DNA of 63,072 nucleotides, the filler included, from Hausera hauseri (Eukaryota), in assembly GCA_046269625.1 (NCBI GenBank). It is 12 parts of 12 records of this genome, joined end to end, with 100 filler letters (N's around TTAATTAATTAA, not from the genome) between each part and the next. Parts side by side here need not be neighbours in the genome. Positions count along the whole stretch, not along the records: positions 27,485 to 34,391 come from JBJURY010053107.1; 11 more parts are not named here. One strand, written 5' to 3'. Positions within the stretch are counted from its first letter, which is position 1, and every line of letters starts with the position of its first letter. The notes under the pieces are model-generated. The model saw nothing but the letters and a program-made list of their open reading frames with translations. It was not told the DNA's origin and ran no database searches. A program made the position numbers and the translations under genes. Of the stretch, positions 15,748-63,072 are shown one piece after another.

Positions 15748-15925
15748 CTGAATTTTTATTGGTTAAATCATATATAATATTTTCTACCCCTTAAACAGTT
15801 CACAAGAAAATTGAGTTACCAATAAGAATGAAGCAAAAATACTCGAATATGATTGGAGACTCAATTTAAATCTAAACTGTTTATGGGGTACAAAAAATTA
15901 TAAACGAGTATCCAATCAGAATTTA
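15748..15925. promoter_or_regulatory. Long imperfect palindrome with four CCAAT/ATTGG boxes between divergent ORFs
   Basis: TTTTCTACCCCTTAAACAGTT..AAATTGAGTTACCAAT (15780-15823) pairs with ATTGGAGACTCAATTT..AACTGTTTATGGGGTACAAAA (15852-15895); weaker pairing extends outward. Confidence 0.65.
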
Positions 15926-15944
15926 GATAAATAATAAATAAATG

Positions 15945-16137
15945 AACTACTTACTAATGTAAGTAGCATATATCGAAAAATAATAATCCAATATTCCAAA
16001 ATAATTTTATAATATTTGTAAATAACAAACTACTTACTAATGTAAGTAGTATATGGCAACTAAATCCAAAATAAATTTATATTTACCGATATTAAATTAT
16101 GATTTAACAAACTACTTACTAAAGTAAGTAGTATATA
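15945..16137. repeat. Three palindromic direct repeats AACTACTTAC-TAA(T/A)-GTAAGTAG(T/C)ATAT with an 82-83 bp period
   Basis: Cores start at 15947, 16030 and 16112; each has an 8-9 bp perfect stem and a 4 nt loop. Confidence 0.9.
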
Positions 16138-16308
16138 ACAGTAAAATGCATTAAATAAATAAAGTGCAAACGAGTCAGAATTCTATTTTTAGAATAACAG
16201 CATGACTGAATAAAGAAGCCTTGTTACTAATTAGTCTTTATGTCCATATTGACTTGTTTTAATTTACTACTGACATTTATTTATTTATTTATTTATTCCG
16301 AGGACCCC

Positions 16309-20792: not shown

Positions 20793-22304
20793 TATATTAC
20801 ATTTTTAAAAAACTACATTTGTACGATAATTTACGTAATTTTTCAATAATTCCAAAAGAACTTTAATGATAAACGCACCCCATTCTATAATAAAAAATTA
20901 GAAAATGTGCACCTTATGATTTACTTTGAACTAGACTTGCCACAGTCCCGCATTCTATTTCGTACTTGTACAGTATCACCCACAAATTCATGGTCCTTAT
21001 TCATTTCATTTCCAATCCAAACATGCATGAACAAACGTTACGACTACTGTTATACGTTTTTTCCAATTTTCTAACCATATGTGTAACTACTTCATCTATT
21101 GAGAGGTAAACTGAATAAGAATCATGCTCTTTCCGAAATACGGTACAAGGATGTATAAAAGGCAGGATATCTGGCAACACTAATATGAACAAAAGTCGGC
21201 GTAAATTATTTCGTATTTTACTTGGGACAAATTACTTGGGACATAGCCAAATATATTTTAAAGCCAAAACTAAAGAATAAAATCAACATTCTATCCAAAA
21301 TGAAGGCGGTTAACAGTACTTGCCAATAATCTTTGTTAGCAAGCCGATTATTACATCACCATTAATTTCTTGGAATTCATAAACAGATATTTAAAATCGA
21401 TAAGGAGAAAGCAGTCATTAATTATTCCCATCATTAAGTTTGTTTTCTTTATTTTATCTAAAAATTGTTCAAATAATTTTTCCGATGAAATTGCCGGAAG
21501 CGTTTGAAATGGTTTTGTATAGATTTTTATAAACGTGACAGTGCAAAAATAGGATTAATTCCCATAATTGAAAAGTGGAATAAAGAAGTTTTTATCTTTT
21601 CCGAAATAATAAATGGGATATAAAATTGCCAGATCTACATTCAAGATTGACCCAAACGTTCAAGAGGCACTAATACATGCATTGGTATTTGATATTGAAA
21701 TAAAGCCATTCAGATATTACCTAACCCGTATCCTAAAAAATAGGTGCATTAGGGGCCCATATGGCAATGTGAATTTTTTTGTCCCAATAATTTGCACTGT
21801 GCCTATTCTCTTTCCTTTTGCATCATTAAATGCCTGTGCAAGATTTCTTAAAAATTGGCGAAGGTTTAGTGGTTGCTCAAAGCACTTAAAATTACTAATT
21901 TTGACATTCGAACTGCAATCATTATGCAAATTCATGTTAATACTACACTGTAACAATGTAACATATTCCACAATTGATTGTGTTGTCCGCGTTAGCATCC
22001 ACGCCGTCCACCTCGTCGCCCAGCTTGGGTAGGGTTGGAAAATCCCCGCCCCCTGGTATTTCCACTAAATCAGAATTTGATCGTTTGTAATTACTCATTG
22101 AAAAGTAACAACACTTGTTGAAAATTTTTATTAAAATCCAACTTATTTATTTGGAAACAAATTTTCCAAATTTAAATCAGACTTTTTAATATTANNNNNN
22201 NNNNNNNNNNNNNNNNNNNNNNNNNNNNNNNNNNNNNNTTAATTAATTAANNNNNNNNNNNNNNNNNNNNNNNNNNNNNNNNNNNNNNNNNNNNAGAATA
22301 TATT

Positions 22305-22973
22305 TCAGTTCCATTTCTTTTTATTAATAGATATTTCGATGGGTATTCCATATCCATCATCTCCTCTGCCACAATTTACTGCTATGATTCTTATGTTGCG
22401 ACCATCTTGGACTAGCCTATACGATTGCGTATGTTCGTTCTTTTCTACCTCGGTCGGAGTCTGTTCAAATTCTAGAACTGGCAAACCTAAGTTGAAGTTC
22501 TCTATATAGGTCACTTCGAACATAAGTTTAACAGGAAGGGCTGCTAATCTAAATTCTAGACCATAGTCGATATTTTCTAAGCCCTGTCTATTTATTCTAA
22601 ATGTACTAAACCGGTATTAACACTCTTCATTGGAATTTCATGCTTGACCTTCTACTCTATAATATAATTCTCCGGCAGCTAGGTGTATGTATACCTCTTG
22701 AGTTTTAGTAATTCGTTTTGAAATCAGTTCCTTTAGTGAGTAGACTCTTGCTTGGTTATTTTTACGCATTGCGTAGAGGCAAACGGTTCGATTTTCTTCT
22801 GTTATACCCTTTAGATCATTGGGAATCTCTGTCACCTTTGAAAATTTAATTGAAGTTTCTGCTTGGAGGGCTTCGGTTATGCGTCGGTAGACAGATTTTG
22901 ATTGTGGTATAAATACTTTCGCGTGTTCCTTTAGGAAATTGTCGACACTAATTCGGCTGATCATACTTACCAT
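22305..22973 (-). pseudogene. Additional unknown ORF(s) downstream of the env-like ORF of the gypsy element
   Basis: ORFs 22638-22973 and 22305-22523. The ATG is immediately preceded by a strong splice acceptor (TTATTTTGTATTTTCTTTCAG). Confidence 0.45.
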
Positions 22974-23162
22974 TCTGAAAGAAAATACAAAATAAGGGTC
23001 AATCCTAAAACAAATTATTGTTCTAAATCTAAACCAATTCTTTTTTTGATGGTGGAATAACCCGATCTGTAATTGTCAGGTTATTCCATCATTAATTTCA
23101 TTCTGTGGTATCATCATCCTTAATTCCCTCTCGGTGATTTTATGACGCTTATTACAACAGTT

Positions 23163-24480
23163 TTAGGTAATCAATTGACAAAGCGCAATAAAAGTTATAA
23201 GAGCAAACGTTGACGTTCCAATAATCGATATCAGTGACAAAGTTGTCCATTTAGTTAAGTTTTTCATTTTAACTGTAGTCGTAATTTCGTCTTCCATTTT
23301 TTTATTGATTCGTAGTTTCGTTAAAACGATCTCGTTTAGGGTTTGTACCATAAACGTTCTACTTTGCTTATTCCTTTTACATATTTGCACTATATAGTAT
23401 GTTTTAGGCTTCAAATAGGTACATTGGATTCGATAGTTACCTTTTGCCAATGTTACTTTCTGATTATCGTGTAGTGTTCAGCAGTTTATTTCGACGTCGT
23501 AATTAAGTACTTCTTCACAATGAACGTTATTTCATGTTGTTGTGTCCAATATTTTATAGGAATCATTTCTAGTTCTTTCTGAGGTAATCCACTTGTTCGG
23601 AGGGTTCTGTTAAAAACTGAAGTAGTCGTATTCATTCCTGTAGTCGTAATTCTACTTGTTGTTTGAAACGGAATTCCCCAAATTAGACTTTCCAATTGGT
23701 AACATCCTAAGAAGATACTCGGCTGGCTTGGTCGAACTTTATATAAGTCTAGTCGAATTTTATATTTTGTGCGTGGGGTAACTTGCAACATCTATTGGGT
23801 CTTTCGGCGTCATTTTAGCAATATTGTTGGTTATCCGCTGCTCTATTCTCTTTTATAAATTGAACCGTGATGACTCCTCCTTTAGTTAACCGTACCTTCG
23901 TGTTTATTTGGATACAATTATCCTTTGGCTTTTTCGTTACACTAGCTATATTTTTTTCTAGCATCCGTTTTAATGGGTCGACAGACTGGAGCATATCTTC
24001 TAGCTCTATATTGAGGTAGTCTCCATAAGTTTGTGGTATAACTAAGTGTGAATTCAGGTTTATTTCGGCGTGTACATTCTTACAATTTGACAAATACGAA
24101 CGATAACTGAGCGCGTAAGAATGTCCGTACTCTACGTTGCAGCAAATTTTATCGTCTTCTGGCTCGAATTTACGATCGGACTCGGCTTGGTTTAAAAGAT
24201 CTTGAAATAGTATTTGAATTTGTCCTTCATATGATCTTGGTATTCTAAACCCGACACATGGGGCTTCCGGCGAAAAATAATCTAATTTTATTGCTCTTAA
24301 GAATTTTTCGACCTTTTGGATTTCTTTGTGTTCTGGAGTTTCCTCTTTCGGTGGCGAAGGTTTTAATCCACTATTCCTGATTCCGCATATGTCGTTCAAT
24401 AAATTTTCATCTGCCCACCATTGGCCGTTAGACTTAGGGGTTAGGGCAGCAATCAACGATAGGGCTACAATCATCTGTAC
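23163..24480 (-). pseudogene. Env-like type I membrane protein, in frame with the integrase C-terminus
   Basis: Signal-like MIVALSLIAALTPKSNG, a Cys-containing ectodomain, a Thr-rich stretch and a C-terminal TM segment WTTLSLISIIGTSTFALITFIALC; broken into 3 ORFs. Confidence 0.5.
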
Positions 24481-24529
24481 ATAAGATACTGGTCTGGTGA
24501 CAATCGACGAGGTTTTAGCTTCTCGTTGT

Positions 24530-27384
24530 CTTAGGTTGTAATGTTTGACTGGTCTTATATCTGTTTTAACTACCCCTTGGATTGATACGACTTCCTCTTT
24601 GCCGTTTTTGTTAACATAGACTGTTGTGCGGATGATTTCATATAGTCCTCTTTCAGTATGTGTTAATTTCAAGGACGTACCTTTCTTCGCGACTGGGTAA
24701 TGTATATAAACCCAATTTCCTTTTTCCAGATTGTGAGACTTAGTCTTTTTATTATATTGCTTTTTAAATTGTTCCTGATATTCGAGTGATAAGGTTTTTG
24801 CAACTTCCCAACACTTTTGCAATATTGTCTGTAAGACTTCGGCAAAGTTTTGCTCTAAATCCTCGAGGTTCTTTTTGTACGGTGTCATGCCTCGATCTGT
24901 GGATAAGATTGCTTCTCGTCCATACATTATAAAGAACGGCGTAAATCCTGTTGCTGGATGTGGAGTTGTGTTAATCGCAAACTGTGTTCCTTCTAGGAAT
25001 TCGTCCCAATCCTTTTAGTCCTTGGCCACTACTGTTGATAATATAGGAATAACGGCCGCGTTCATTCGTTCGACCATTTTATTACATTGGGGGTGGTATG
25101 CGGTAGCGGTTAAACGTTCAATTTTAAATATCTTGGTAATCTTTTCAAATAAATCGCTTGTGAAGTTCCTTCCTCTATTTGTTAAAATTTGTTCTGGTGG
25201 TCCGTACCTGCAGATGATTTTTCGTACCACTGCGTCGGCTAAAGTTTCTGCCTTTTGATCTATTAGTGTCACCAATTCAACAAAGTGCGTTAGTCGATCT
25301 ACGAATGTTAGAATATATCTGTTATTTCTGTGAGTTTACGGCAAAGGTCCTACTATATCTATAGACATAGCTTGCATGGGCCTATCTGGTACGTTTATGG
25401 TTTTTAATTCTGCTACGTAGCCTTTCGTTTTCTTCTGTTTTGTCGCGCAAACTTCGTACGCTCCTACCCAATTCTTTACATCAATATAAATACTTGGCCA
25501 GTAGTATTTATTTAATATCCTTTTCAATGCCTTCTTCCAAGACATGTGTCCGGCTAAATATGAATCATGTTCGGCCATGAGTACTTCGATGCGTAGTCCT
25601 TTTGGAATAACTATTAGTCTTCTTTCTTTTCGCTTGTAATATAGGATATTATCTTGGTTCGATGCATGATATTATATCCGTGTTTCTGTAAATGCTTTTT
25701 CAGTTACCGTCCTTGGGGCATTTTGCCGTTTTGCGCGAATTCAACAATTTGTTGAATAACCTTATCTTTAGCTTGTTCTGCTGTAATTTTAATCGTCCTA
25801 TCCAGTATTAGAGTTCTTTGTCGTTCAACCAGTTGTTCGAGTTGCGGTCTATTTACTGTGGTAATTGCACTTGTTTTTATCTTTAATCTTGACAGTGCGT
25901 CGGCATTGACATATCTGTTACCTGGTTTGTATTGGAATTCAATATTATATCGTGAGATTTCCTCGATCCAACGGTTTAATCTACATGTTGGATTATTAGC
26001 TCGTTCTTTCAATGTCATAACTGCTTTGTGGTTGGTCACTATTAAAATCTTTTGTCCGTAGACATAGACATTAAAGTGTCGTAGTGCTTCCTTCAAGGCT
26101 AACGTTTCTAATTCGGTAACCGAATAATTCTTTTCTACTTTCTTTAACGAGCGTCCACCATAGGCTATTGGGTGTTCTAGTTCTTCATCTCCTCGTTTCT
26201 GAAATAATTCGTATCATATGCCTTCTTTACTTGCATCTGTTTTAATGATGATTGGTAGGTTAAAATCAGGGTATCTTAAAACTGGTTCGCTTGTCAAAAT
26301 TTTATTCATTTTGTCGAATGCTTTTTGTTTCAATTCCGTCCATCTCCACTTGGTTCCTTTTTGAGAAGGTGATATAGTGGCGCGTTAATTTTCGAATTGT
26401 CTGGTACGTAGGTGGCGTAATATCCATATAGGCCTAACCAGTGTATTAACTCTTTTTGATTTTGTGGTTCCATACAATCGGATATTTTATTTAGCAGGGA
26501 TTTATCCGGTTTTTATCCTCTTTCTACAATTATGTGTCCGAGGTACAAAACTGCGTTTTGTGCCCATTTACATTTCTTTGGATTTAGTTTCAACCCTGCT
26601 TGTTCCAGTCGCATGAGTGTATCTTCAATGTCCCTTAAATGCTCTTCTTCCGTTTTTGATGCTATAATTACGTCGTCTAAGTACGCGAATGCATGATCAA
26701 GTCCTATGAGCATCTTATCATCATAGTAAAAATAGCTGGTCCTGTGGTGATGCCGAAAGGTATAACATTAAATTTGTATACGCCATCGCGTGTCTTAAAC
26801 GCTGCCTTGTATCGATCTTCTTCTTCGATTTCTACTTGCCAGTATCCCGATTGTAAGTCGAGAATGGTAAACCATTTCGCACCTGATAGTCTGTTTAAAG
26901 CTTCCTTTACCGATGGTAGGGAGAACGAGTCTTTTATCATAAACGTGTTTATTGCTCGGTAATCTTTACAAAATCGCTGTTTTGTTGTTCCTTTCTTTTT
27001 AACCATAAGTATAGGTGAGTACCATGATCGGTAGCTTTCTCGAATTATATAGGCCTTTAACATTCGCTCCACTTCTTTAGTTATTTCTGGTCTCAAAGAA
27101 TGTGGAGGCGGGTACCATTTGGGCATTTTCTCTCCTTTTAGATCGATTTCATCATTCAAGCCGGTTTTCTTTCTTAATGGAATCGTTAATCGTAGGGCTT
27201 TGGCTCTGCCGATGTCTTCCTCATTTTGTGCGAGTATCGAACTGTATTTACATAATAATTTGTAGAACTTGCAATACTCCTCAGGAGAGAATTTAGTTTC
27301 GACGTGATGTGGAAATTCAGCACACTTATATGGTTTTTCTTCTATCGTTATTGCTGATACTCTGCAAGTGTGACCTAAAGTAGT
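24530..27384 (-). mobile_element. pol: Ty3/gypsy pol (RT-RNase H-integrase), disrupted, 5'-truncated
   Basis: LDLQSGYWQV, AYLDDVII, NADALSR, integrase H-H/C motif, SIDIVGPLP and TAYHPQCN..VER, in RT-RH-IN order. Confidence 0.92.
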
Positions 27385-27485
27385 NNNNNNNNNNNNNNNN
27401 NNNNNNNNNNNNNNNNNNNNNNNNNNNNTTAATTAATTAANNNNNNNNNNNNNNNNNNNNNNNNNNNNNNNNNNNNNNNNNNNNG

Positions 27486-27752
27486 AATGGAAAAACTACA
27501 TGTCCAGTATGCCGCGCAGAAGCTGCCGATCTAAAATACTATTCCAATGGCAGCTACACCCAAATAGTCAGGATCAAACCTTATCATAGCTATGAGCTTG
27601 AAAGACACTCTAGAGAAGATCAGCCAAGTACCAGCTCAGATTCTAGTCTAAGAAGACGTATGGAACTGTTAAGAGACCCACGTCGTCGCGGCACCTCTAC
27701 TGACGCAATTGGCACATCCGAGGATGCCGTTCAGGGAGGAGAAATGTTATAA
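27486..27752 (+). CDS. 3' end of an ORF with a RING-finger-like C-terminal half-motif, reading through the PPT into the LTR
   Basis: Open frame from the contig edge: NGKTTCPVCRAEAAD...GTSEDAVQGGEML*. Confidence 0.5.
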   Translation, partial: NGKTTCPVCRAEAADLKYYSNGSYTQIVRIKPYHSYELERHSREDQPSTSSDSSLRRRMELLRDPRRRGTSTDAIGTSEDAVQGGEML

Positions 27753-28495
27753 CTGAGCACAATGAAAAATACAGTGTAAAGAAACCTGTACATATTATCT
27801 AGCAATAATAATCATTCTATGCGTATATAGTAATTAGCAGTATCTATATTAATTAGCAATAGTTTTTGTTGTATTGTCTGCAATTTGTAATTAATCATTC
27901 CCGAGAGAAAGTAATGCTTTTGTTGTAAAATGATTATCAGCGAAAGTAATAGAAAATCAACAACAGAAATAAAGAAAAATACACAGATAATCTAAAAAAA
28001 ATTAGATGCTGAGGGAAGTCAGAAAGTTATATAAAGAACTGCTAAAACGAGAAGGGAGAGAACAAATTGGTGATTGCGATATTCAGCTCCGAAATAAATT
28101 CCTCAAATTTCGTCGCGATAGACATTGATATTGATACCTGTTTGTTCTTGATATTCGAGTGTATACGGATACGTCGTTGAGCGAATTGTTTTTATTTGGT
28201 AATTTTATTGAATATACATTTATTAAAATCTCTTGTAGTTTTCTTCGCCCCTTAAGGATGATTGGACCACAGTAAGGTTAAAATCCAGACTTAATATATA
28301 TATAGTTAGGAGAAGAATCTACTAGTAAATTACGCAAGAAGTAACGCACGCATTAACCGGCACAGAGATATAAATTCGTTAAGGTACAGGCAGTCTATAC
28401 GATTACGATAGACCGGCTTGCATAGAAATAGTAAATTCAAGTGAAATTATTGTTATATAGCGGGAGTCGAATAGGGCCCACCCCTATATATAACA
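27745..28495 (+). repeat. LTR (751 bp)
   Basis: Inverted termini TGTTATA...TATAACA. PPT AGGGAGGAGAAA lies immediately upstream and the PBS 2 nt downstream. TATA box at ~28028, ATTAAA at ~28222. Confidence 0.85.
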
Positions 28496-28497
28496 TT

Positions 28498-28515
28498 TGG
28501 CGACCCTAGCAGGAC
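28498..28515 (+). promoter_or_regulatory. Primer binding site, tRNA-Arg(UCG)-like
   Basis: TGGCGACCCTAGCAGGAC, close to the tRNA-Arg PBS TGGCGACCGTGACAGGAC of 412/mdg1-type elements. Confidence 0.75.
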
Positions 28516-28895
28516 AGTCTGAACCTCGCTAAACTCACTTCTCAGAGTTAAATAATTACATATCGGCGAACAGCGCCATTCATACCAAGTAATTGGATAT
28601 ATATATAGAAACTAAAATCTATTGGGATATAAGGTTATTCTGACGGGGATAAGTAAAGCAAACGTAACTGAGAACAATCATTGATAGACCAGGATTAAAT
28701 CATATACTAAAAGATAATTCCCCTATACGTGATACACATAGGAACATATATAGAGAAACAGAAAAAGTAGATAAACGTTCGAATTCTGAGAATAGAATTA
28801 AACTAGACGACATTAAGCACAAAAACCAATTTAAAACTCCACGCGAAAAACTTAAAGTAAATAAACCGAATATAGAGTTAGATAAAGTAAATATA

Positions 28896-29925
28896 ATTGC
28901 AGCCGATAACGCACCAGTAGCACAGAAGCTGGACGTCTTCACTTTCGATTCTCTAAACTTGCCGGCATATGATGGAGACCCAGACGGGCTTAACAACTTC
29001 TTGAGATCTTACAATTTGCATGCAGAAGGTGCTAGTCTTACTCCGGAGGTAATGATCAAACGCTTGTCGTTGTATTTAAAGAATTTAGCCGCGGATGCTT
29101 ATAGCGAACTTACTAACGATGAGAAGAAAACTTGGTCCTCACTGGTAGGAGCATTAAATCGTAAATTATTGCCGACCGTAACGCCGCAACAGAAACTTAT
29201 GGCATTTCAGAATAGAGTACAGCAAAAAGGTGAATCAGTAACCCAATTCGCTTTTGCGTTAAAGAAACTTGCTAATAGTTATATTAGTACATTACGAATA
29301 GCTAACGTAGCTAAAGCTAAGACAGATGCGGAACGTGAAGCCTCTGAGAAGGCAACACCGCCAGACCTAGACGTCATGATGACGACACAACTAATTTATG
29401 GTATTTGGTCACGAGATTTAGTCAAACAGCTAATTTTAGCTAGACCTGAAAATTTCGAAGGAACTTTACAGTTGGCTCAGGATTTAGAAATGGCGTTAGA
29501 CAAATACGCCAGATATAGTGATAGAAACGATAGAAATAAGGACCGAAGTGATCGCAGCGATAGAAATCGCGAAAGGGATGATAGACAATTTACAGGAAAT
29601 AAAAATTATGGGAATAAATATAATAACGGCGGTTATAGAAACGGTCGAGGTAATTACTCTAATATGAATCGGTTAGATTCTAACTGGGATAGAAATAGAG
29701 GAAATTATAAAGGTTCGAACTAATCGAGTCATAACGGTGACAACCGACATAATGATACTAGACGAAGTGCAGATAATATGCAAAATTCACCAAACCAGCA
29801 TAATAAAAGTGAAAGTAGATCTAAGTCACCAGTGAACGAAGATGGTCGACAAAGAGTCGGCAGAAATGGAAATTTAGTTTGTTTTACTTGTGGTAAAGAA
29901 GGACACATTTCGAGAACATGCCCAA
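28896..29925 (+). pseudogene. gag: Gag: capsid, R/N/D-rich region and a single CCHC knuckle; one in-frame stop
   Basis: PAYDGDP..L..FL, RVQQKGESVTQFAFALKKLA (MHR-like) and CFTCGKEGHISRTC at 29880-29921. Confidence 0.88.
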
Positions 29926-32900
29926 ATCCGCGTAGTGTCTCATTCACTAAGACCAACAAGACTAGTATGATCCGAACTAATGAAAATTTAGAGGCAAAGT
30001 ATGGCGTTCGCGGAGACACAGGTACTATCATTGATATACAGGACTTGAGAAAATTCTTGGATGCTCAGCCAGATACTAATAACTTACAAATTTTGATGGC
30101 TAGAAGAGAATACGGAGATAAGTTGAGACTACTAGAAGTGTACCACGGTTTAGCCGAACCAAGAACGGAATATCAGCATGCAATAGCACCTAAACGAATT
30201 GATATGACACGGAAAAGAGTGTTCCGATGAGTAATAAACCGTCTGATAAACCAAGTACATCGGCAGAAGTCGACTTAGATGCAGTGCCTGAGTTTACGGG
30301 CGAGAAAATGGATAAGCCTATTGATGACGAAACGGCAGAAAAGAAATTTATAGAACCGTTAATACTTAAAATTACGAAAAACAGAGGTCGTAGCCCTTCC
30401 TTAAAAACGGAACGTAGTACTCGTTCACGTTCCAAAATAACTAGAGAGAAAATTGAAGAAACGGAAAACTCGAACGTCGTCTTAGGAAACGACACGAAAC
30501 ATAGTTTGAATACCCCGGAAATCGACCCACTTACGCCTGTCGGAAGAGCGGAGTCGGTAGAATTGACTAATGAAATTAATGAAATTTGTCCACTTCCCAT
30601 TAGTGAGGAAGAAACGGCCAACAATTACGATTTCAATTCAAAAAAATGGAAAATCCGACGCTCATGGAAAAACGCCGACGAATTAAAGAAAATAAGAATT
30701 TACTGTTTAGAGCCCGAAATATTGCAACGAAATTTAGAGAAGCTCAAGCAGATTAGCGAACAAGTTGATATATCCGGTAAAGAGCAGCAATACGTCGAGA
30801 AGTTATATAAAAGCTTGAAATTACGCAGTGAAGGAAAATTCGTTGAAGCAATCGAGGTGAGGCAACCTGAAGAGGTGTCCCCGGAAATATTATGGAAATG
30901 GAAAGCAAATTGGAATTGTGAAGAGGGTTGGAAATTTCGGAAGGATGGAACAAAAATGAAGAAAGTATCGATGTAAAAATTACCCAAGCTCAAACGCTAT
31001 TATCAACGTTAGAGGAAAATCCAAAACTGAAGAGAGTAGTCCACAATTTAAAACGTATAATGGATGAAGTTCAATACGCAATAACTAAACGACTTAGGGA
31101 AAAACCGGTTAACCATCGAGGTAATATCGATCTGGAAGTATTGGGAATAGACCCGCTGGATATTCCTCCCCTAACGGAAATGATAAAAGTCGCATTTGAT
31201 ACGTCCAAACAATATACAAACTTGGAGAATCGGTTGAAGATAGAAAATGAAAAGCGAGCACAAATCTACAGCTTGAGAAATAGAATCATGTCCCCAACCC
31301 ACGAGGAGACTCAATATATAGTAAAGGCTTGTATCGTAGAGTTAGACGAATACAAGGACGAGTTTAGTTATATCGGACGAGTTATGAATTTCCTAAAAGA
31401 ACCGGACGATGAGTTAGAAGACGCCTATAAGATGCTAGATAAAGCCATAATGGCAAAACCTGTAATCACAAATCAATTGTCGGAATGGTTCGAGCTAGTA
31501 ACGCGACTAACCAAATTGGTAGAAGACCGTAGAACGAAATTTCCGCAAAGCGATTCAATGGTGAAAAAGCAACTAGAGGAATGTGTACACGACTTAGCCA
31601 CGTTGATAATAGAAATAAACATCCGTGCTTAATTTGAAGCGCTACGACAACTAAAATTTATGAAAAAGGAACAGGAAGCATCGACGATGGAAGAAATCTA
31701 CAAATTAATTGAAGAGACGAACTATACGGAGAAACGGAATATGATTTACGATGTATATTTGAAGTTAAGCATCGTCCGACTAGAAGGGATTCAATATTTA
31801 ATCGGGAAACCAATCGACGAAATTTCTGCACAAAATATTGAAATTTTGGACATTTGTCCAGGATACCGAGATACGCTAATGGATTCACTAAGGTTTCTAC
31901 ACAAACCTTAAGAATGGATAACCGAATTAGATTAGAATTTCCATACGAAATTGGTAGAAATCGGAAACGACCCACATTTTAGTTTTTAGGAACACAAGTT
32001 CGTGAAGAAATTATCGGATGCAATGGACCCTGATTCAAAGGCTATAAATGAGATGTACGAGTTAGTCTATTTATTGGTGGAAATGACAAAAATCAGTGAT
32101 TAACAGATGAGACAATTGATGCCCAGGATACATAAAGTAAAAGAAACATGTATTAAAACGAAACAAAGGGCGATAAGGTTAGACGAAATAACAAAAGAAC
32201 TTGAAGTCTACCGAAACAAATATGCTTTTACCGAGTCCGAAATTAAGAATAAACAAGAATTTGTACAAAGATGGCAAAAGGATGTGATTCTTGAATTAAC
32301 AGATTATCACCAAAAAGGGCTAATCGACTCTAACGAATTCGGTGAATTATTGAAGACGATTCAATATGCCTGCGGAAACGGAGTAGGTTTCCGAACGATG
32401 AAAATGAAAGAAATGCAACCTAAACTAAAGGAAATTTGGGAAAACATTCAAAGAGCCAATACAGCTTTAGTGGACTACCGACTTCCGGATGTCGGAAACG
32501 AACCCAAATGGGATGCATACTTCGACAAAATACTTGCCGGAAAACCAATGACTCCAGTACAGCTAAGCGAAATAGAAACATGTCCCAAAGACAGAAGATT
32601 CAATGTGGAAATGGTACTAGATTCAGCGCTAACTGAAAAAGATTCGATGGAATTAATTAACGTAAATATTACTGAGAATAAACTACAACTTATTCTAACG
32701 TTAACTAAATTATCTAGCGAAAACACGATTTATAGTACGGTGCAGAAACTTTTGATAAGGAAGTACGCAAAAATCTTAAGGAAAAAACCAGAGGTAGCGA
32801 CAAAAATACTGGTATCATCCGAGTGGATGGATGAAAAAGAATGTGAATTAACCACTTATTCCTATGTAAAGGATGTGAGAGAATAGTTATTAAACAATGG

Positions 32901-33735
32901 CGGGACAAATGAGTTAAATTACAGATTCTACTTTAGAATCTGTACTCGACGACTTAGAACAGCTGATAGATGTCGGAATTATTTCTGATGAAACAAATCG
33001 GATAGTGGTCACAATAGGTAACGAACAGACAAAAGAGGAAGCCACACGTAAGGCTAAAGCAGAACAATGCGTCGGACAAATTATGGGAGTCCGAGACGCT
33101 GCACTATATTTTGAGTATATACAAACGGACGAAGATAAAGAACAATACGACATAAATTTAGCACCACTAAGCGAAGCAAACCCGAAAGGCCCAAGGCCAA
33201 AACGTCCAGTAGGCAGACCTAAAAAATGCGAGAAGAAGTGGACTACAATGGAGAAATAATTAGATAATTGAAACAGATGTCGATTCCGACTTTTAGCCCA
33301 GATAACGAGGAATTAAGTGAATTAATGAAGAATTTAATACGAATTGTAAATTACTCCAGCCTTCGAGGAGATGTGTTAGACGATAAAGAAAAGATAATAT
33401 TTGATGCAGCCAAAATGATGAAAAGTTCACGTTTCAAACTATCAAAAAGTAACTTAACCGATGAGTCAGTAATAGAAAAGATCATGGTAGAAAACACGAA
33501 TAAAGAATTGAGAAAAGTTTTGCTGTATTTGGCTATCAAAGTAAGTCCTAACCGAGAGAACGAAATCAACAGAGCTATAAGCTTAGCACGAAAAGCAGCG
33601 AGAAGACTGCCCTACGAAGTAAGTTGGTCAAGGTTATTCGAGAAAGAAAAAGATAAACGCAATAACAATAAACTGGATGACATAATACGCAACCTGACAA
33701 TGTCAGACGTAGGAGGTCGAAAGAACGAATCAAAT
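29926..33735 (+). pseudogene. Long unknown, largely helical polyprotein region in the position of pol; includes a ubiquitin-like domain (~32800-33020) and an AT-hook (~33195-33225)
   Basis: Consecutive ORFs 29778-34443 separated only by single stops or frameshifts, colinear with the copy at 59160-62890. No RT, RNase H or integrase motifs. KRPVGRPKK present. Confidence 0.7.
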
Positions 33736-34391
33736 TGGCTAATTAGCTTGCTCACTTTAATGATGTTGATCAAGCACATAGGCGCTGTAACCGTCTATGA
33801 CTGCGATAAGTTTAAGTTAGGACAAAGATACTCCCTAATGGATCTGGAAGCTTGCGAAGATGCCAGACCGCACAAATTGGAAACAAGAGAGAAAAATTAT
33901 TTTCTATATCAACAGCAAGAATTGGTATCGTTAGATGGAATAAAATGCATGTTGAGACGATCGCGTAGCATTTTCCATTGTGGATTAATTCATGGTCACT
34001 CCTCTATAATTAAACCGACCACACCGCTTATTCCGATGAACCTAGAACGTCAACATTGTAAACAAGCCAAGGAAACTGGGAAATTACAATGGAATAGCCT
34101 ACAATTGGAAATGCAACCCGGAAAAATAATTAGAGCATATAAAGTAATATCTAGAAAGTTAGATATGCATAGCGGACATTGTAGCGGAGCAGAATACGAC
34201 ACAGAAAAAGGATTAGAACCAAACGTAGTAGTTGTAGATTTTTATGAATCAGAAATGCAATCACAAAAGGTAATGTTCCATAGTGTCACTAAATTATATA
34301 CAGAAAACCCAAAATGTCATTTACAAGACGGAACCTGTGCTTTTAGAAGCTCGGTTATAATATGGGAACCTCCCTCTGGAAGGAGTTGTAA
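33736..34391 (+). CDS. Signal peptide plus chuvirus-like (class III) envelope glycoprotein N-terminus, truncated by the contig end
   Basis: WLISLLTLMMLIKHIGA, then VYDC..YSLMDLEAC..YQQ..IKC..SIFHCGLIHGHSS..C..A..TG and GHCSG, matching the GYDC/SLLDVxxC/YCGxHSH pattern of Jingchuvirales glycoproteins. Confidence 0.75.
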
Positions 34392-34491
34392 NNNNNNNNN
34401 NNNNNNNNNNNNNNNNNNNNNNNNNNNNNNNNNNNTTAATTAATTAANNNNNNNNNNNNNNNNNNNNNNNNNNNNNNNNNNNNNNNNNNNN

Positions 34492-37804: not shown

Positions 37805-39468
37805 ATATTCTAGTGTAAAATTAAAATCGGTCATGTTTTATAGTCACGTCTGGAATTGTGGTGTTATTGTTTGGTAGAGGTCTTTATCTATACCAATGCC
37901 TTATGATCAGTTCTAGTCGTGAAGTGCTTACCACACAGATACTGTTTAAAATGCAGCACATATTCTTGTAATGCCAACAGTTCTTTTCTTGTAATGCAGT
38001 AGCCTTTCTCAAAAATGAAACTGTTCTACACGCATACGCTATTACCTTTTCTTCATTTCCTATTTGTGGACTGAGTACTGCTCCGATTGCATCAAACGAT
38101 GAGTCTTTATCCAAAATAGAATTCTTCGTTGGATTTATGGAGGTTAATACTCGCGCTTTATATAGCTTCAATTTCAATAGCTTGAAGCTATCCTCACATT
38201 CTTTTGATCAAAACAACTCTATACAAGTACTCTTGCAAGCCTGATGCAACGGCACCGCAAAGACTGCGTAATTCCTGATAAATCTTCTGTATATGCTCTC
38301 ATTAAAAATGCTGTCAACGACCGCATACACTTTGGGACTGTAAAATTCCGGATCACTATTACTTTTAGCTGATTTATTGACACTTCCTGATCATTAATGG
38401 TATGTCCGAGAAATATAAACTCTGAAACACCAAATGTACATTTTTGAATTAACTTTTAGATATGCATTTTGAACCTCTTCATCACCTCTTCTAGTAGTTT
38501 GCAATGATCAAAAATTGTCTTTGAGTAAATCAGCACGTCATCGAAGTAGGTAATAACACCCGAAAACAGTAAATCTTCTAATAGTGTATTCATCAGTCGC
38601 AGAAAAGTTCCAGGAGCCATTGATAGGCCAAATTGTACTCAGTTGAAACAATATTGTTGTGATTTCGTGCAAAAGGCTGTTTTATTTTGGGAGTCTTCAT
38701 CCAATGTGACTTAATGATATGCCTTAACGAGGTCTATACTTAAAAAAAATTTGAACCGCCAAACGCGTCAAATAATGTCTGATTTTCCGGCATTGGAAAA
38801 GAAATTATCTTTGCTATTTCATGTAACTTTCTAAAATCCAAACAAATTCGGATTCTTCCATCTTTGTTTTGAGCAACCACTAAAGGCGAATTCCATTCAC
38901 TTTTGCACTTCCGAATAATATCTGCTTTCTCCAAGTATTTCAAAAATTCTTCAATTTTACCTTCCATATGTACTGACTGTAGTCTGGGGTTCAAAAAATG
39001 GGTTTACTCTCAGTTTTGATTCTGTTTGACCAGATCCGTAAACTTTAAATCGTAATCGTGTTTTATAAACACCTCATCATTGCGTTTTACAACTTACAGT
39101 AATTGACCCTCCGCGATTTCCATTTTTCCCATGATTGTCTCCACTGTGTTTCGCTCGTTCGAGATCCATTAACATCGTTTTTCATTAATTTCTTACAAAA
39201 TACCTTTAAAATATCTATTTCCCCAATAGCTTCTGGTCTGATTATATTTACTACTCTCAATTTAATCTTATGTACTTCAACATCCCACTCCACGTTGACT
39301 TTTACTTTCCCCAAACAACCATCACTTTTCGAAAAGGTTCCACTCAATATCAAAGCGCACTTAGTTAACTTAGGTTGCCATATCGCTTTCTAAATATTTT
39401 CACTGATTACTGACACCGTGGCTCCACTATCCAACAACATTTCTATTCCACACTTGTTCAGCTTGACT
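37805..39468 (-). mobile_element. pol: Ty3/gypsy pol fragment (protease-RT-RNase H), degenerate
   Basis: MLLDSGATVSVIS, WNSPLVV..DGRIRICLDFRKL, YFDDVLI and DSSFDAIGAVL..VIAYA. Confidence 0.85.
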
Positions 39469-39568
39469 NNNNNNNNNNNNNNNNNNNNNNNNNNNNNNNN
39501 NNNNNNNNNNNNTTAATTAATTAANNNNNNNNNNNNNNNNNNNNNNNNNNNNNNNNNNNNNNNNNNNN

Positions 39569-42500
39569 AGAACGCTTAACAACACTGTATCTCATACAAA
39601 ATGTATGTACACAAACTACACATGGAAAACACGAGAACATAGGATGACATTGTATTAAAATATATCTTGTGATAGGCAGTACAATACCCCCCACAGTAAC
39701 TCGGATGAATCTGTAAATAAAGATTGAAAGAAAATACCCAGAACAAACTGTTTTAATAAAGTTTTGTGCGTACGAGGCGTTGTAATTCATCGTTATATAA
39801 TTGTCTGCTATATGTGCCGAATGTGACTGATTTTCGATGTACTTTCACCGTAGTGTCCGAATGCTGGCTGGGTTTGGCAAAGAAAAACGTTTGTTTTAGT
39901 ATGATTGGATGTTGTGTCTGGGTAAGGTAATACAGAAGATGGAGAAGAGATGATTGGAGGTAAATTATTCCAGTTTTCTGCTATAGTTTTAGAAGTTAAT
40001 AAGTTGGGAGGTGAAGTAGAAATAGGCGAGGTATAGAAATAGGGTGTGGAGCAGAATAGGGGTAAAAGTACGAGTAGAGTGTAATGCAGACATGGGGGTA
40101 GAAGTGGGATTTGTAGGTGACGATGTAGGCAGAGAAATAGGAGCAGAGGAATGATGTGTGGTAGACTGGGAAATTGAAGTAGGGGTAGAGGTGGGTACAG
40201 GGGTGAGGAATGAAGTTGATACTTTAGTTGGTAAGGTATCATTGACGTAAAAAGCCGGTTTTAAATTATTTATATGCACTACAACTTTTTTCCGTTTTTA
40301 AGGATAATAGAATTGTGTGAATGTAACTGCACTAATTTATAGGGTCCTAAGTACTGTCGCTGGAAATCACACAGTGTCTGGTTTTTTAGCCATACAAACT
40401 TTGCCGAGTATAAGTCTTCAGGTATGTACGATTTGTCGTTATGTAAAAGTCTGCAAAACGAATCCTTGCTGATTGTGACGAATTGATCCTGTGCTGCTCG
40501 TATTCTCTCGTCTGTAGGGATCTCTTCCAGAGTGGTTATTTTAAACAGTGACCGTACAGGGGTTCCGAATAAAGCTTCCGTTGGTGAGCATCCTGTGGAA
40601 GTAGACGGGGTGTTCCTCCATCCAAGCAGAACAAAGGGAAAAAGAGAAGTCCAATTGGTGTTGGATTGTACAAGTATTCTAAGCGATGTTTTCAATGTTT
40701 GGTAGAAGCGTTCGAAAAGGCCGTTCGATTGGGGATGATAAGGTGTTGTATGAATGTGGTTTATTCCCAACTGGTTGACTAGGGATTTAAACAAATTTGA
40801 CTCGAATTGCGGACCTTGGTCTGAGATGATATAACGAGAAGTCCCGAACCTACTAATCCACGTACGGATTAAAGTATCGGCTATAATGTCAGTGTTTGTT
40901 CTCCGCAGTGGGATGGCTTCCGGCCATCGTGAGGAACGTCCATCATGCTCAGAATAAATTGGTGCCCGTTGTTTATTGTAAAAGGACTGGCGATATCAAT
41001 ATGTAGTGTTTCAAAGATTGATGTGCAAGGGAAGTGGTATAATAGTGGTTTTAAGTGTTTTATGGTTTTATATTTCTGACAAGCCACGCACTATTTAACC
41101 AATGCTTGCACATCGGAGCGCATGGACGCCCAAACTACCTGACGATGAAGTAAGCGAAAAGTTGCCTTGTCACCAGATGATGTAATGACTGTATACTATC
41201 AAATGCTTATCTGTGTAAAGATGGGGCAAGAATTATTTTAGAACTTCCTGGTTTGGAAGTATCTAAGGCCACGCCATTAACGATGTGGTGAGACTTGAAC
41301 GACTTTAGAATGTCTTGGGATGGCTGATTTTCTTGCAGTTTTGTCTGAGTAAAAATTGGCGAAAAATTGATTGAACCGACTGATCTAAATAGGAAACCGG
41401 CAACTAGATTGTCAACACCGCCAATGTGTTTAATGTCAAAGTTTAACGTAGATAAATATGAAATTTGTCGTTCTTGTCGAGTTAAAAAATGTTTCATTGC
41501 TATTATATTAACCAACGGTTTGTGATCAGTCTGTATAACAAAATGACTAACTGTAAGTAAGTGAGAAGTGTCTTAAAGCGAGGACTATTGCCAGAAGTTC
41601 CCGGTCGAAAGTTGAATATCTAGTTCCAGGCGGCGTTAATTTTCGGGAAAAGAATTCTAAGGGATGATTTTCGCCTTTATATAACTGGTGTAGTACGGCG
41701 CCTACTGCGATGTTTGATGCATCTGTTGTCAAAATTAGCTCAGCATCAGGTTTAGGAAATAATAGTATTTCAACGGTCTTTAGTCCTTCGCGTAGTCTAT
41801 CAAACTTATTAACCAGTTGTGGTGTCCACATGATTTTCTGGTGTTTCACCTCCGCTTAAGTGTGCAAAAGCTGCCGTGAGTTCTAAACAATATGGGATAT
41901 ATTTGTGGGCAAAATTCAAGGTACCAAGAAAACTGCGCATTTTAGTGGTTGTCTTGGGTAGATGGGCGTTTTTAAGAGTCTGAACTCGATCAGGCTGAGG
42001 CAAATGGCCCCTTAAGGAAAAAATATGTCTAAGAAAATTAACGCGTTTTCGGAAAAAGTTACATTTCGCAAAATTGATCTGTAGTTTGACCTGATTAAGT
42101 CGTTGGAAGATAGATCGTAGGTGTTCCTCGTGTTGTTTAACAGAAGAAGATGCAACGAATATATTGTCAATATATGGATGCGCAAAAGAGAAGTCTGAAA
42201 GGATTGAGTCGACATGTCGCTGAAAAGTCTGCGCAGCGTTTCGGAGGCCGAAATGCATGTACAAATACTCATAAAGACCGAAAGATGTGGTAACTGCAGT
42301 TTTCTCGATGTCTCTCGGTGATACAGGAATTTGGTGGTAAGCTTTGGCTAAATCATTTGTTGAATAGATTGTAGTAGTATTAAGCCGATGTAATATGTCT
42401 TTGATTAATGGTAGTGGATATGCATCCATTATGGTTGAAGTATTAAAATGGCGGTAATCGCCGCATGGTCGGAAGTATCCATCTTTTTTGGACAACGTGG

Positions 42501-44626: not shown

Positions 44627-44740
44627 TGTGGTGCCCACAGAGGCCGGCGCCCTCTGGCCCAATTGGTTGGACACGACCGGGCCTCCGCTGCCGCCGCGTC
44701 GGACCTATAGGCGGGTCTCGATCTTCCGCCTCTAAAATTT
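44627..44740. repeat. GC-rich repeat, probable LTR terminus (copy at 3928-4011)
   Basis: On the minus strand it ends GGCACCACA directly before the gag leader, complementary in style to the TGTA(C/G)TGCC LTR starts. Confidence 0.55.
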
Positions 44741-45042
44741 CCGCGGAACAATGCATAAACAGACATTTTATTGGATTACCTGCAAAATATTCGGTATTAT
44801 TTTTTTTATTCATACTTGAAATTGTTTCACACATGGTTGCCGACAAGCCTAATGAATGTTGTTGATAGATCATTTAAATGTTAAACCGCAAATTTATGAA
44901 ACTGTAGTCACACATCAGTGATTTCTACACATTGATCGTTTAAATTCGGATGAAGAATTTTTCAGTGAGTAATGCTTTATCCGTAAATGTATCTTAAATG
45001 CCGGTACTTTGTCAAAATTGTACTAAGAAGCTTCAGTTTCAG

Positions 45043-52167: not shown

Positions 52168-52309
52168 GGGTGAGATTTTTTTCACTAATTTGCGCCCACC
52201 AGTGCGGCCATTTTTTGGACATGCATACATCCTTACCAGCTAACATCGATTTTAATTTTAAAAGGTTTCTAAGCTCGAAGACTAAATATTATTTTATCAC
52301 ATTTGGTAT

Positions 52310-57888: not shown

Positions 57889-60800
57889 AGAATGGGAATA
57901 AGTAAAAGCTAATTAGAGAACAAACATTGATAGGTTTAACTCAAATCAAAATTTATTAGTAAACGGCGTAGAGAAACATAATCAAAGAAAAACTCGAAAT
58001 AAACTTTATATAGAAGACAAATTAATCGATAAGCATTGTTTATCTGACAGTGAACTAACCTCCGATAAAGAATTTAAAGCTTTTCCTAGGATTAAAGTAG
58101 ACAAACCGAATAAAATAAAGATGGCAACAGAGAACCCAGCTGTAGCTCAAAAACTTGACATATTTACGTTTGATTCCTTGAACTTTCCGGCCTATGATGG
58201 TGACCCAGACGGGCTAAATGACTTTTTACGAACTTATAAATTACACGCAAAAGGTGCCAGCCTTTCGCTCGAAGTTATGATTAAGCGATCGTCCTTATAC
58301 TTGAAAAATCTAGCTGTAGACGCTTATGGTGAACTTACTAATGATGAAAAGAAAGCATTGTCTTAGGTAGTAGGAGCCCTAAATCGTGAACTATTGCCAA
58401 TAGTGACGCTTCAACAAAAACTTATGGTCTTCCAGAATAGAACGGAACAAAAAGGTAAGTCGGTTACTCAATTCGAATTCGCATTTAAGAAACTTGCTAA
58501 TAGTTACGTGAACACGCTAAAGATAGCTAATGTGGCAAAAACAAAAACGGACGCAGAACGTGAACAGCAGAAAAGGCAAGTCCGCGGATTTAGATGTCAT
58601 GATGACAATTCAGTTAATATATGGCACATGGTCCAGAGATTTAGTTAAGCAACTAATTTTAGCTCGACCAGACAATTTCAAGACCTCATTACAGTTAGCA
58701 CAAAACCTAGAGATGGCATTAAATAGATACGCTAGACAGAGCGATAGACATAATCGAAACAATGATCGCGATAACCGCGATAGAAATCGAAACAATAGAA
58801 GATTTAATGATAATAATAAGAATCGAGGTTATAAGAATGGAGCTCAGAATACCATTAGCCGCCACTTGGGATACGATAATAGGAACATTGGTGATAATTG
58901 GAATTCATATAATTCGTATAACAAAACAGGATATATTTCAGTTAGAAATCAAAATAATGACCAAAGTAATAAAAACCGGTATATGGATAATCGGAGTTTT
59001 GAAAATAGAAATAACGGAATCGAAAAGCAGGCTCAAAATAAGACAAAAGGTAGAACCAAATGGTCAGTAAATGAAGATGGACGACAAAAGATCGGCCGAG
59101 ACGGAAACCTGATTTGCTATTCATGTGGCAAGGAGGGACATATAGTTCGATCATGCCCTAATCCACGAAGTGTATCATTTGAAGAAACCAGTAAAGCTAG
59201 CACGATAAAAGATAATTTAGAAGGAATTTATGGAATCGAGGCGATATAAGTATGATTATCGAGATGCAGGATTTGCGAAGATATGTGAAAAATATGGTCG
59301 AATCCAATAATCCACAAGTAATCAAGGCCAGGAAAGAGTACGAAGAAAAGCTGCATCAAATGGAAGTTTATTACGGGTTAAGAGAACCAAAAACGGAATA
59401 CGAAAAAGCGATAGCACCTAAGTATACATACATTGCCCGAAAGAAAAATCTAGATCAAGCGGCAAGAGAAGAGAAAGAAGAAAAACCAACTGCGTCTTCA
59501 AGCGTAGACTTGGATGCAGATACCAAAGACACACATCAAAATAAAGATAAAACAGAAGAATAGATTGAGAGTGAATTTATTGGGCCATTAATACTTGAAA
59601 TAACCAAAAATAGAGGCAGAAGCCCCTCACTTAAATGAAGATCACGAACTCGTTCACGATCCCCAATTACAAAGGACTTAGATAAAGAGGAAGATTTCGT
59701 TATTACCTTAAGAGACAAAACAGAGTTAAATACTCCTGTTTTAACAAATATTTCAAATATCAATAAAATTAATTAAATATGTCCATTACTGCCTAGTGAG
59801 GAGGAATCAGAAAAAAAGACTATCGGGTTTGGGAAAATCAGAAAATATTGGAAAAACGCAAAGGAACTAAGTGAAATAAAAGAGGCGCTGAATGATCCGG
59901 AAAGGTTACACGAAAATCTCCAGAAATTCCAACAGATGAGCAATCAGTTAGATATTTCCGGAAAGAAACAACAATCCATAGAAAAATTATAAAAAAATTA
60001 AAGCCAGTGCTCAACAGAAGGAAGAAAACACAAATGATAAATTCCAAGAGACGCCGAAATATGTGATAAAAAGATGGAAAATATACTAGAGTTGTGGATG
60101 AAGAGTGAAATCGAACTTTCGAAAATACGTGGAAATAGAGAGGAGCCGCTCTCCGACCAGATTAATCAAACAGAAGAACTACTAAATGCACTAAAACAAA
60201 ACCCAAAGCGGAAACGCGTAAGACGCAACTTAGAAGAATTGGTAGATGGAATCGAAGAATCAATAAATTCTTATCTTCACACTAAGCCGGCGTATGAACT
60301 AAACGAAGTAGAATTGAATATATTGAGCATAAACCCAACCGATATCCCCCTTCTGATAGCGATGTGTAACTTAATAACGGAGAACTCCAGAAAATACCCA
60401 AATTTAGAAATCCGATTTGGAAAAGAAAATGAAGCCCGAACCAAAATTAACTATTGTAAAAGTGCTATGGTTCACTCTGAAGAAGTAAAAACAAAAAGAA
60501 TAATATACGCTTGTCTTCTTGAATTAGACAAGTATAAAGAAGAATTTAACTATATGAAACATATTACAGAATTTATAATAGGTCCGGATTACGAACTAAA
60601 TACGGTCTTGCGACGCTAAACGAAATAATCGACACTAAACCCACAATATCCAAACAAATATGGAAGTGGATAGACTTATTACCTTCCATAACACAAGTGA
60701 TAAATGGAAGATTAAGAGAAATCGCTATGACGGAACCTATAATGAAATACCAATTAGAAGAAATGCTACTAGATATCGTTACAATGGAAGATGAAGCGAA

Positions 60801-63072
60801 ATTGCGAATTAAATTTGAATCATTCAGAGAACTTGAATTTATGAGCAAAGATCAAGACCGAACAATATTAACAGATATATATAGTATGATGGAAGGAAAA
60901 AAATTTTACAAAAAAGAAACAAGCTAAGTGATCTTTAGCGGATTTTGGTGAACATCCGTTGGGAAGGGATACAGCACCTAATGCAGAAACCGCTGAAGGA
61001 AATCTCAGTACAGGAAATCGAAACATTAGAAGTATGTAACGATCACCGGATCCCTCTAGCGCAAACACTACAATACTTACAGAATCCAGCAGAATGGACA
61101 CCAGGCTTCGACCTACATTGCTACACGGAACTAACAGATATTAGGAAGGTTTTTCAGTTGACAAGCGACGAAGCCAAGTTTATAGGCAGGTTAATAGATG
61201 CAATAGATCCGGATGCCGAAGTATTAAATCAAACACTAACTAATAGAACTATTAACAGAAATGGCTGAGATTGATGAAACATTAGCCAAACGGTTGATAA
61301 ATCGAATACGTCTGAAAGGAAATCCGGATACGTTCCGAGAAGAAACAACGCGAACTAAATGAACTACTAAGAGAAGTAGAAGTATACCAAAATAAGTATA
61401 CCCTTACGGAATCGGAAATGAACGACAAAATGAAATTCATACAGAGATGGCAGAGAGACAGAATAGCAGAGGTGACCAGCTACCAAGAGAAAGTCCTGAT
61501 ACAACCAGAAGAAATGTGCCGAATAATAACATTGATACAACAAGCTTTCGGGAACGGAGACGGATTTAGTGTATCCGTTATGAAAATATTGCAACCGCAA
61601 CTAAGAGAACTACGCGAAAGAGTCCAAGTAGGACACGTGGCATTAACGAATTACGAGTTACCCGACGCGTATAACGAGGATGAGTGGGATGAATACCTGC
61701 AAGGTTGAAACGAACAGAGTGAAAGAACCCCGATACAAATTTATTAGTCACCAGTCGGTATCCAGAAAACGAAATTTCATTACTTGACCCGATACTAGCA
61801 TAAAAAGAATTAGGTAACGTACTGAAAATAGACATAAGTAAAGACAGATTAAAAAAACTGATTCCAACCTTAACTAAGTTTTCTAGTGAAAACACTGCAC
61901 ACAGAGCCGTTCCCAAGCTCCTAATAAGAGAATACGCTAAACTTTTGAGAAACAAACCAGAAGCGGAGATTAAAGTGAAAGTATCATCTAAATGGATGGA
62001 TGATGAGGAATTCGAGTGCACTACTCATACCACCTTTGGGATATAAGACAACGAATAATGGATAAAGGCGGCAAAGAAGGAGTTAGTTACCGGCTCTATT
62101 TCAGGGGTAGGATATTAGATGAATTAGAATCCTTAATGGACGTTGGTATCATACCTCGCGAAGAAAATCGAATAATAGCAATAATTGTTAACGAACAAAC
62201 AAAAGACAAAGCCATAAGGAAGGCACATACAGAACACTGCGTTGGAAAAATCATGGGGATTCAGGACGCTGCAATGTACTTTGAATACTTACAGACGGAT
62301 GACGATAAACCGCAATACGATAAGAGTTTAGTCCCACAAAGCGAAACTTTACCATCACTAAAACAGAAACGACCAGTCGGAAGACCAAAGAAAATAAAAT
62401 AAGTGGACTATAATGCAGACCTAAACAGAGAACTAAGACAACTATCAGTACCCACTCCGAGTTCAAATAATAAAGAACTAGTTTAGTTAATAAAAGATTT
62501 AATAAGGATAGTTAATTATACCGGATTACAAGGTGACATACTATCCGAGAAAGAAAAACTAATATATAATAGAGCACAGACCATGAAGACTTCGCGATTC
62601 AAGTTATCTAAATGTACCTTCTCTGATGAAACAGTAATTGATTGTATTATGATAGATAATAAAGCGGAGGAATTAAGGAAAGTCAAGACATATTTAGCGG
62701 TAAAAACTAACCCCTTCCGAGAAAACGAAATTGACAGGTCAATCGGGTTAAATAGAAAAGGTGCAAGAATGGTACCTAAAGAAATAAAATGGGCCACACT
62801 ATTCGAACAAGAGGATAACGGAAAAAGAACCAATAACTTAGAGGACATGGTACGAAACATCTCTTCAAGAAAAGGGAACGAATCCAATTGGTTAATCAAT
62901 CTACTAACAATAATGATGTTAGTAAAGCAGATGGGAGCTATCAACATATACGATTGTGACAAATTTAAGGTAGGTCAGAAGTACTGCCTGATGGGTTTAG
63001 GAATATGTGAAGATGCAAGACATAATAAGCTCGAGACAATAGAAAAAGGATATATATTATATCAACAAAGGG
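57889..63072 (+). mobile_element. Second, diverged copy of the pol-less Gag-ORFX(UBL, AT-hook)-glycoprotein element
   Basis: MATENPAVAQKLDIFTFDSLNFPAYDGDPDGL (58121), CYSCGKEGHIVRSC (59115-59156), RLYFRGRILDELESLMDVGI, KRPVGRPKK and WLINLLTIMMLVKQMGAINIYDCDKFK (62889 onward), colinear with 28896-33920. Confidence 0.88.

Follow-up and report, generated by a model that had tools for sequence, protein, structure and literature searches.

A decayed Ty3/gypsy element of Hausera hauseri with a long accessory region and a class III Env, very probably followed by pol

The 63,072-nucleotide (nt) stretch of Hausera hauseri DNA analysed here (the window) consists of 12 contigs, each 4-7 kb long, joined end to end by identical N spacers. 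Its seventh contig (contig 7) carries the 5' part of a long terminal repeat (LTR) retroelement, comprising a putative LTR, a primer-binding site, Gag with a single CCHC knuckle, a long coding region that we call X and the start of an envelope glycoprotein (Env), inside which the contig ends (Table 1). An earlier note on this DNA had presented the element as lacking pol and being non-autonomous or a structural segment, with a rearranged gene order as the fallback.

Table 1. Positions in the window of the element, its second copy and the contig that carries pol
Feature	Position	Strand	Basis or remarks
Contig 7 (element)	27485..34391		6,907 nt; both sides bounded by assembly spacers
Putative 5' LTR, 751 nt	27745..28495	+	TG...CA, 7-nt inverted ends
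Primer-binding site, tRNA-Arg-like (Asn also fits)	28498..28515	+	Sequence TGGCGACCCTAG
Gag: Asn/Arg-rich linker and capsid domain, the latter with homology starting at 28953	28668..29720	+	PF03732, relatives' profile, tblastn
Single CCHC knuckle, RSVSF motif after it	29877..29945	+	PF00098, E 2.2e-6
Coding region of ~800 codons, identity unassigned	30203..32590	+	5 stops; frame changes near 30210 and 30950
Four-helix and ubiquitin/SUMO-like domain	32650..33022	+	Stop at 32884, frame change near 32940
Motif RPVGRPKK, taken to be AT-hook-like	33203..33226	+	Sequence; kept in second copy
Helical domain at the site of the relatives' Bcl-2-like domain (candidate)	33400..33640	+	Collinear alignment
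Internal signal peptide and first third of class III (gB/Monjiviricetes-type) Env	33739..34391	+	PF24664, hydropathy peak
Assembly spacer between unrelated contigs	34392..34491		1 of 11 identical N-TTAATTAATTAA-N spacers
Second, diverged copy	57889..63072	+	Gag-X-module-Env start, same order; likewise cut inside env
Contig 6: RT-RNase H-integrase, membrane-anchored tail, further open reading frame	22295..27384	-	Pfam, pol tree, tail profile

The capsid domain of Gag matched PF03732 at E 0.0047 and a profile built from nine relatives (proteins found by the searches described below) at E 8.5e-31, and Gag also matched complete polyproteins by tblastn. Its start codon is not established, and the reading frame meets an in-frame stop at 29721. 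One knuckle is present in both copies of the element in the window, and relatives have one to three. The RSVSF motif (29931-29945) also occurs in the second copy and is common to relatives. In 9/14 Gag proteins, a motif of the form [RK]x?VxF follows the last knuckle at a distance of no more than 25 residues, against a background of 27/689 50-residue windows; we take it to resemble a PP1-docking motif, although it may instead mark a processing site. Gag with one CCHC knuckle had been read in the same way before, and the earlier assignment to Ty3/gypsy is supported by the match of Gag to gypsy polyproteins.

The putative LTR opens with TGTTATA at 27745 and closes with TATAACA at 28495, followed by TT and then by the primer site. 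As only one LTR copy lies in contig 7, the call of an LTR, which agrees with the earlier one, rests on these TG...CA ends and the adjoining primer site. No 3' LTR was found in contig 7, which stops inside env. Over 12 nt, the primer site matches the tRNA-Arg(CCG) end at 10/12 places and the tRNA-Asn (Asn_GUU) end at 10/12 places, using the ends given in supplement 1 of PMC13524379. Of the tRNA-Arg-like site claimed previously, the primer site itself stands and Arg is a plausible primer, but not a unique one, because the Asn end likewise differs at 2/12 places.

Env aligned with PF24664 (E 3.4e-17) from profile position 6 to position 219, out of 653, at which point contig 7 stops, and was assigned to class III from sequence only. 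A hydrophobic signal at 33739, visible as a hydropathy peak, confirms the internal signal peptide described earlier. A homologue search with the env piece among proteins of 656-2,000 amino acids (aa) found none, whereas phmmer without a length filter found 62. A tree built from 57 N-terminal pieces of env set the stand-alone glycoproteins of ~650 aa apart as a group (split 99.1/90) and placed the contig 7 env with the polyprotein envs, without a settled position among them. By this grouping, env is a long-established retroelement gene of the gB/Monjiviricetes class and not a recent acquisition from a chuvirus. The chuvirus-type glycoprotein of the earlier note is therefore retained as a PF24664 match, but the capture it implied was overstated.

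X extends over ~1,300 codons from the knuckle to env, and the ~1,270 codons that lie before the signal peptide have no Pol motif. Contig 7 holds a damaged copy that could not yield a complete protein: it has seven in-frame stops (six in X and one in Gag) and four frame changes, all in X, which does not agree with the ~3.8 kb of near-continuous coding sequence reported before. Every part of X showed 47-64% aa identity between the two copies, with changes mostly at third positions, and the ~800-codon region of Table 1 showed 47-54% identity and third-position bias, in a codon-position test that is partly circular in that codons were aligned by protein and then filtered. Variant places taken from contigs of public sequencing runs gave a mild third-position excess (18/39). 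The ~800-codon region had no Pfam match above cut-off and no match in the collected relatives' polyproteins, and an Atlas search with the piece 32104-32883 returned no match. The possibility that X is a diverged Pol was rejected, as X gave no significant protease, reverse transcriptase (RT), RNase H or integrase profile match.

The description of X as unknown thus holds for these ~800 codons and not for its last third, which has recognizable modules. A profile of 13 modules from relatives matched positions 32650-32898 (E 2.6e-7) and 32936-33022 (E 0.0019), and the second copy matched likewise. The intact module of a relative was modelled as four helices and a ubiquitin fold (predicted local distance difference test score (pLDDT) 91.5), the C-terminal half of which aligned with SUMO1/ubiquitin (Z 11.9, root-mean-square deviation 1.7, 76 aligned), and relative P0071 matched PF00240 (E 4e-5) and PF11976 (E 0.0015). 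The four-helix domain precedes the ubiquitin-like domain once or twice per polyprotein in relatives P0068-P0073. By eye, the four-helix half (32650-32790) looked like TFIIS N-terminal domains, but no tool bore this out: no TFIIS-like match was obtained via Pfam, the Atlas or a four-sequence profile against PDB, fold searches, dominated by the ubiquitin half, gave none for the four-helix half, and a literature search on the pairing of a TFIIS-like four-helix with a ubiquitin domain found nothing. Further downstream, the motif that we take to be AT-hook-like has a counterpart, GRP[KR], before env in 6/10 relatives displayed. For the candidate Bcl-2 slot, the relatives' profile gave E 1.2 on contig 7, and the low-confidence model (pLDDT 45.9) had no Bcl-2 match, only generic helical bundles (best Z 5.3). 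Relatives P0005 and P0069 weakly matched PF00452 in this slot (E 0.001), and the family profile of the slot matched Bcl-xL weakly, at E 0.025 and above. Pieces of the broken contig 7 copy had no Pfam match to MATH, BIR, RING, ankyrin or Smc-like domains; the ankyrin repeats of relatives lie after env.

The second copy is 65-72% identical to contig 7 at the nt level in three blocks, with collinear protein matches. All 30 bins of contig 7 were covered in two public runs, by 16,309 and 1,067 short contigs, which indicates that the family has a high copy number and that X is a constant component of it. These were the two runs in which the public-run search found contig 7 sequence, with no RNA run among those listed. 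Public contigs crossing the ends of contig 7 (121 and 15) were all short, and nothing was seen past the ends. Both ends of the putative LTR were very deeply covered and its interior was shallow. The flank upstream of the LTR (27485-27744) is itself deeply covered, and the element therefore probably sits inside another repeat.

The absence of pol cannot be read from contig 7, because the contig stops a third of the way into env. Relatives' profiles gave no protease, RT, RNase H or integrase in contig 7 (best, protease, E 1.8), as the earlier note had stated, whereas the same RT, RNase H and integrase profiles gave strong matches on other contigs of the window, three or four in number (best E 1e-19 to 1e-74). 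This negative rests on the domain-profile scan; a whole-frame Pfam scan, which found the knuckle only and missed env, was too weak to serve as one. We next turned to the relatives. Of the 62 proteins matched by phmmer with the env open reading frame (ORF), 21 were scanned with Pfam. Ten of these exceed 1,100 aa, and eight run past env, the remaining two ending inside or at the end of env. In all eight that pass env, an aspartic protease comes next (one weak, E 0.0018), and four of the eight continue to RT-RNase H-integrase. A second search, seeded with relative P0063 and restricted to 2,664-8,477 aa, added nine new proteins, in which env is followed by a protease in 9/9 and by RT to integrase in 8/9. 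Seven of the nine also match the contig 7 Gag (E 7e-5 to 8e-22), and six are complete Gag-X-Env-Pol polyproteins that match both its Gag and its Env. The order in the relatives is a single polyprotein, Gag-X-Env-protease(s)-RT-RNase H-integrase. At the DNA level, locus L001 holds an unbroken ORF of 3,703 codons matched in order by the contig 7 Gag, its Env and then the pol contig described below, and locus L002 is similar. With contig 7 cut inside env and a protease next in all eight relatives of the unfiltered search that pass env, the Pol-less headline is not supported, and the fallback of a rearranged gene order is supported by the env-before-pol order of the relatives.

A pol of this kind is present in the window on contig 6, whose edge falls immediately ahead of RT; neither an LTR nor a primer site was seen at the pol start. 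In a pol tree of 22 rows, contig 6 nested with 14 env-before-pol rows (Shimodaira-Hasegawa-like approximate likelihood ratio test (SH-aLRT)/ultrafast bootstrap (UFBoot) 99.3/96), with six generic gypsy matches from an RT search, none with env, serving as outgroups. P0080 and P0060 were left out of the trees as too short, and the second pol tree also omits the contig-8 element. After the integrase (22308-24600, minus strand), contig 6 has coding sequence for a signal-like segment, for a cysteine motif that it shares with the clade and for a transmembrane end. A six-segment profile of the relatives' post-integrase motif had contig 6 as its only match in the window (E 1.3e-7), and single-sequence searches with post-integrase tails gave 0/10 matches in the window at E<0.05. 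Contigs 6 and 7 have a similar A-rich coding-strand composition and share no DNA, as expected of non-overlapping halves. Contig 6 probably represents the 3' half of a member of the contig 7 clade, whether or not of the same family. In relative P0070, the stretch corresponding to the gap between the two contigs measures roughly 900-950 codons. The ORF at 23075-22308 (minus strand) has no identity assigned; relative P0074 has an Ig-like domain at that place.

Overall, we consider it very likely that contig 7 is the 5' part of a Ty3/gypsy element present in high copy number, here as a decayed copy, in which protease, RT, RNase H and integrase would follow env in one Burro-like Gag-X-Env-Pol frame. 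In this model, expression from the LTR would yield a single polyprotein. Env would be threaded across the membrane by the internal signal peptide and its own anchor, so that Gag/X and Pol stay on the cytosolic side, and signal peptidase together with the element's own proteases would release the parts, with Pol supplied in cis. By analogy, host pathways of ubiquitin, chromatin and cell death would be the targets of the ubiquitin-like, AT-hook-like and Bcl-2-like modules, roles of the kind proposed for Burro in the published description (PMC6431247).

Several points weigh against this model. X is longer than the 233-918 codons found in 12 relatives, the relatives are only 25-33% identical in env, and one of them, P0017, ends at the end of env. 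The second search, being size-selected, favours long tails. No sequence was found that joins the contig 7 env to pol, all overlapping public contigs being short, and no close relative was found in three DNA collections (metagenomes, viral contigs and prokaryote genomes). As to contig 6, it is a long branch in trees with few outgroups, its clade had a support of 81 in the first pol tree, which had one more divergent outgroup, and its source may be a sister family.

Readings in which the element is truly Pol-less or segmented are, taken jointly, unlikely. The absence of any Pol motif in 6.9 kb, of pol in both copies of the window as far as they run and of a direct env-pol link would all fit a non-autonomous deletion derivative in which Gag-X-Env was retained and pol lost, and which relies on an autonomous sister family for its copying. 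However, both copies end within env, before the place where pol would be expected, a protease follows in 8/8 relatives that pass env, and the clade's pol is present in the same window, so that we regard such a derivative as quite improbable. Similarly, the location of the two halves on separate contigs, with their similar base composition, could reflect a two-segment retroelement whose structural segment (contig 7) and polymerase segment (22295-27384) share LTRs and are co-packaged. This is very improbable, as the pol contig, which begins at a contig edge, lacks an LTR and a primer site there and has no DNA in common with contig 7, both halves form one ORF in L001, and the size of all 12 contigs (4-7 kb) points to fragmentation by assembly. 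Improbable, too, is a split of an ancestral Gag-X-Env-Pol that left a high-copy element with only capsid, a class III fusogen and an extra 800-residue protein for interaction with the host, its copying being left to a separate Pol-only partner; if true, the split family would be an invertebrate's enveloped retroelement, either segmented or dependent on a helper. The data do not point to a truly Pol-less or segmented form, which would come as a surprise.

Least probable of all is a BEL/Pao element of the Anakin type, or a chuvirus glycoprotein gene inserted by chance behind gag. PF24664 also covers chuvirus glycoproteins, and such captures have been published; yet Gag matches gypsy polyproteins, env falls outside the clade of stand-alone glycoproteins, and the same junction recurs in the second copy at 65-72% identity.

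Further features were observed among the relatives and elsewhere in the window. Tandem aspartic proteases follow env in P0003, P0004, P0063 and P0066-P0068, with up to six stretches in P0063; some of these relatives have C2H2 fingers or ankyrin repeats between the proteases, and some a protease-like domain after integrase. A separate downstream ORF in L001 (12085-13470, E 0.0011) and L002 (10617-12104, E 1.4e-5) matched RNase_T (DEDD) exonuclease. P0009, an env-before-pol polyprotein of 2,627 aa that NCBI lists under a Flavobacteriaceae metagenome-assembled genome as a hypothetical protein, is probably animal DNA in a bacterial bin. The window also contains three other decayed gypsy elements with ordinary pol, at 39569-46917 (minus), 51369-57788 (plus) and ~37900-39470 (minus), the first two being 65% alike, and, at 15893-16150, three spaced copies, ~83 nt apart, of a short palindrome-containing repeat.

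Several known systems resemble this element in part. Burro/GYPSM1 are giant planarian gypsy elements of >30 kb in total, described in PMC6431247 as carrying Gag, an accessory region and a mononegavirus-like Env in frame between gag and pol. From that description, contig 7 and Burro have in common Gag with knuckle(s), a long accessory region, a Ubi2/SUMO-like domain between Gag and Env, a slot for a BCL2-like domain (occupied in contig 7 by a candidate) and then Env, as well as high copy number and decayed copies with stops and frameshifts. Contig 7 differs in its single knuckle (two to three in Burro, PMC6431247), its 751-nt LTR, its ~800 unmatched codons and the lack of a MATH, BIR or RING match in the pieces of its broken copy, with pol likely lying beyond its end. 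The element probably works as Burro does, a likeness drawn from published description and not from sequence. Our literature search found the full module order described for planarian Burro only.

A second group comprises the GAG-ENV-POL Ty3/gypsy errantiviruses with an Env of the HSV (herpes simplex virus)/gB type, reported in PMC13524379 from Platyhelminthes, Bryozoa and Nematoda. Contig 7 shares with them the gag-env(-pol) order, with Gag upstream of env and no pol between, a gB/chuvirus-like Env (class III by PF24664, judged at the sequence level), a putative LTR, of which one copy is present, and a tRNA primer site. Pol follows env in six complete relatives and in L001 and L002, whereas contig 7 ends in env. 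Among the matches listed, which cover 30 of 32 places, the Arg-type primers in PMC13524379 all belong to F-type elements. Its main text makes no mention of Burro, Bcl, ubiquitin or polyprotein, and the accessory region is therefore not described there. Troyka was rejected as a counterpart, having CG...CG ends in its published description. The BEL/Pao element Anakin carries the same glycoprotein family on an LTR element, according to PMC7642597. In contrast, contig 7 is gypsy rather than BEL/Pao, with an env apart from the stand-alone glycoproteins. Anakin reportedly has env after pol, an order from which contig 7, with no pol between Gag and Env, departs. The relatives share a kit of a four-helix and ubiquitin-like module (one or two copies), an AT-hook-like motif, a Bcl-2-like domain, one to six proteases and a membrane-anchored tail after integrase, which makes processing and host targets testable. 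Together, the contig 7 element extends the already described env-before-pol gypsy elements and widens a little-studied kind, the giant env-before-pol gypsy polyproteins.

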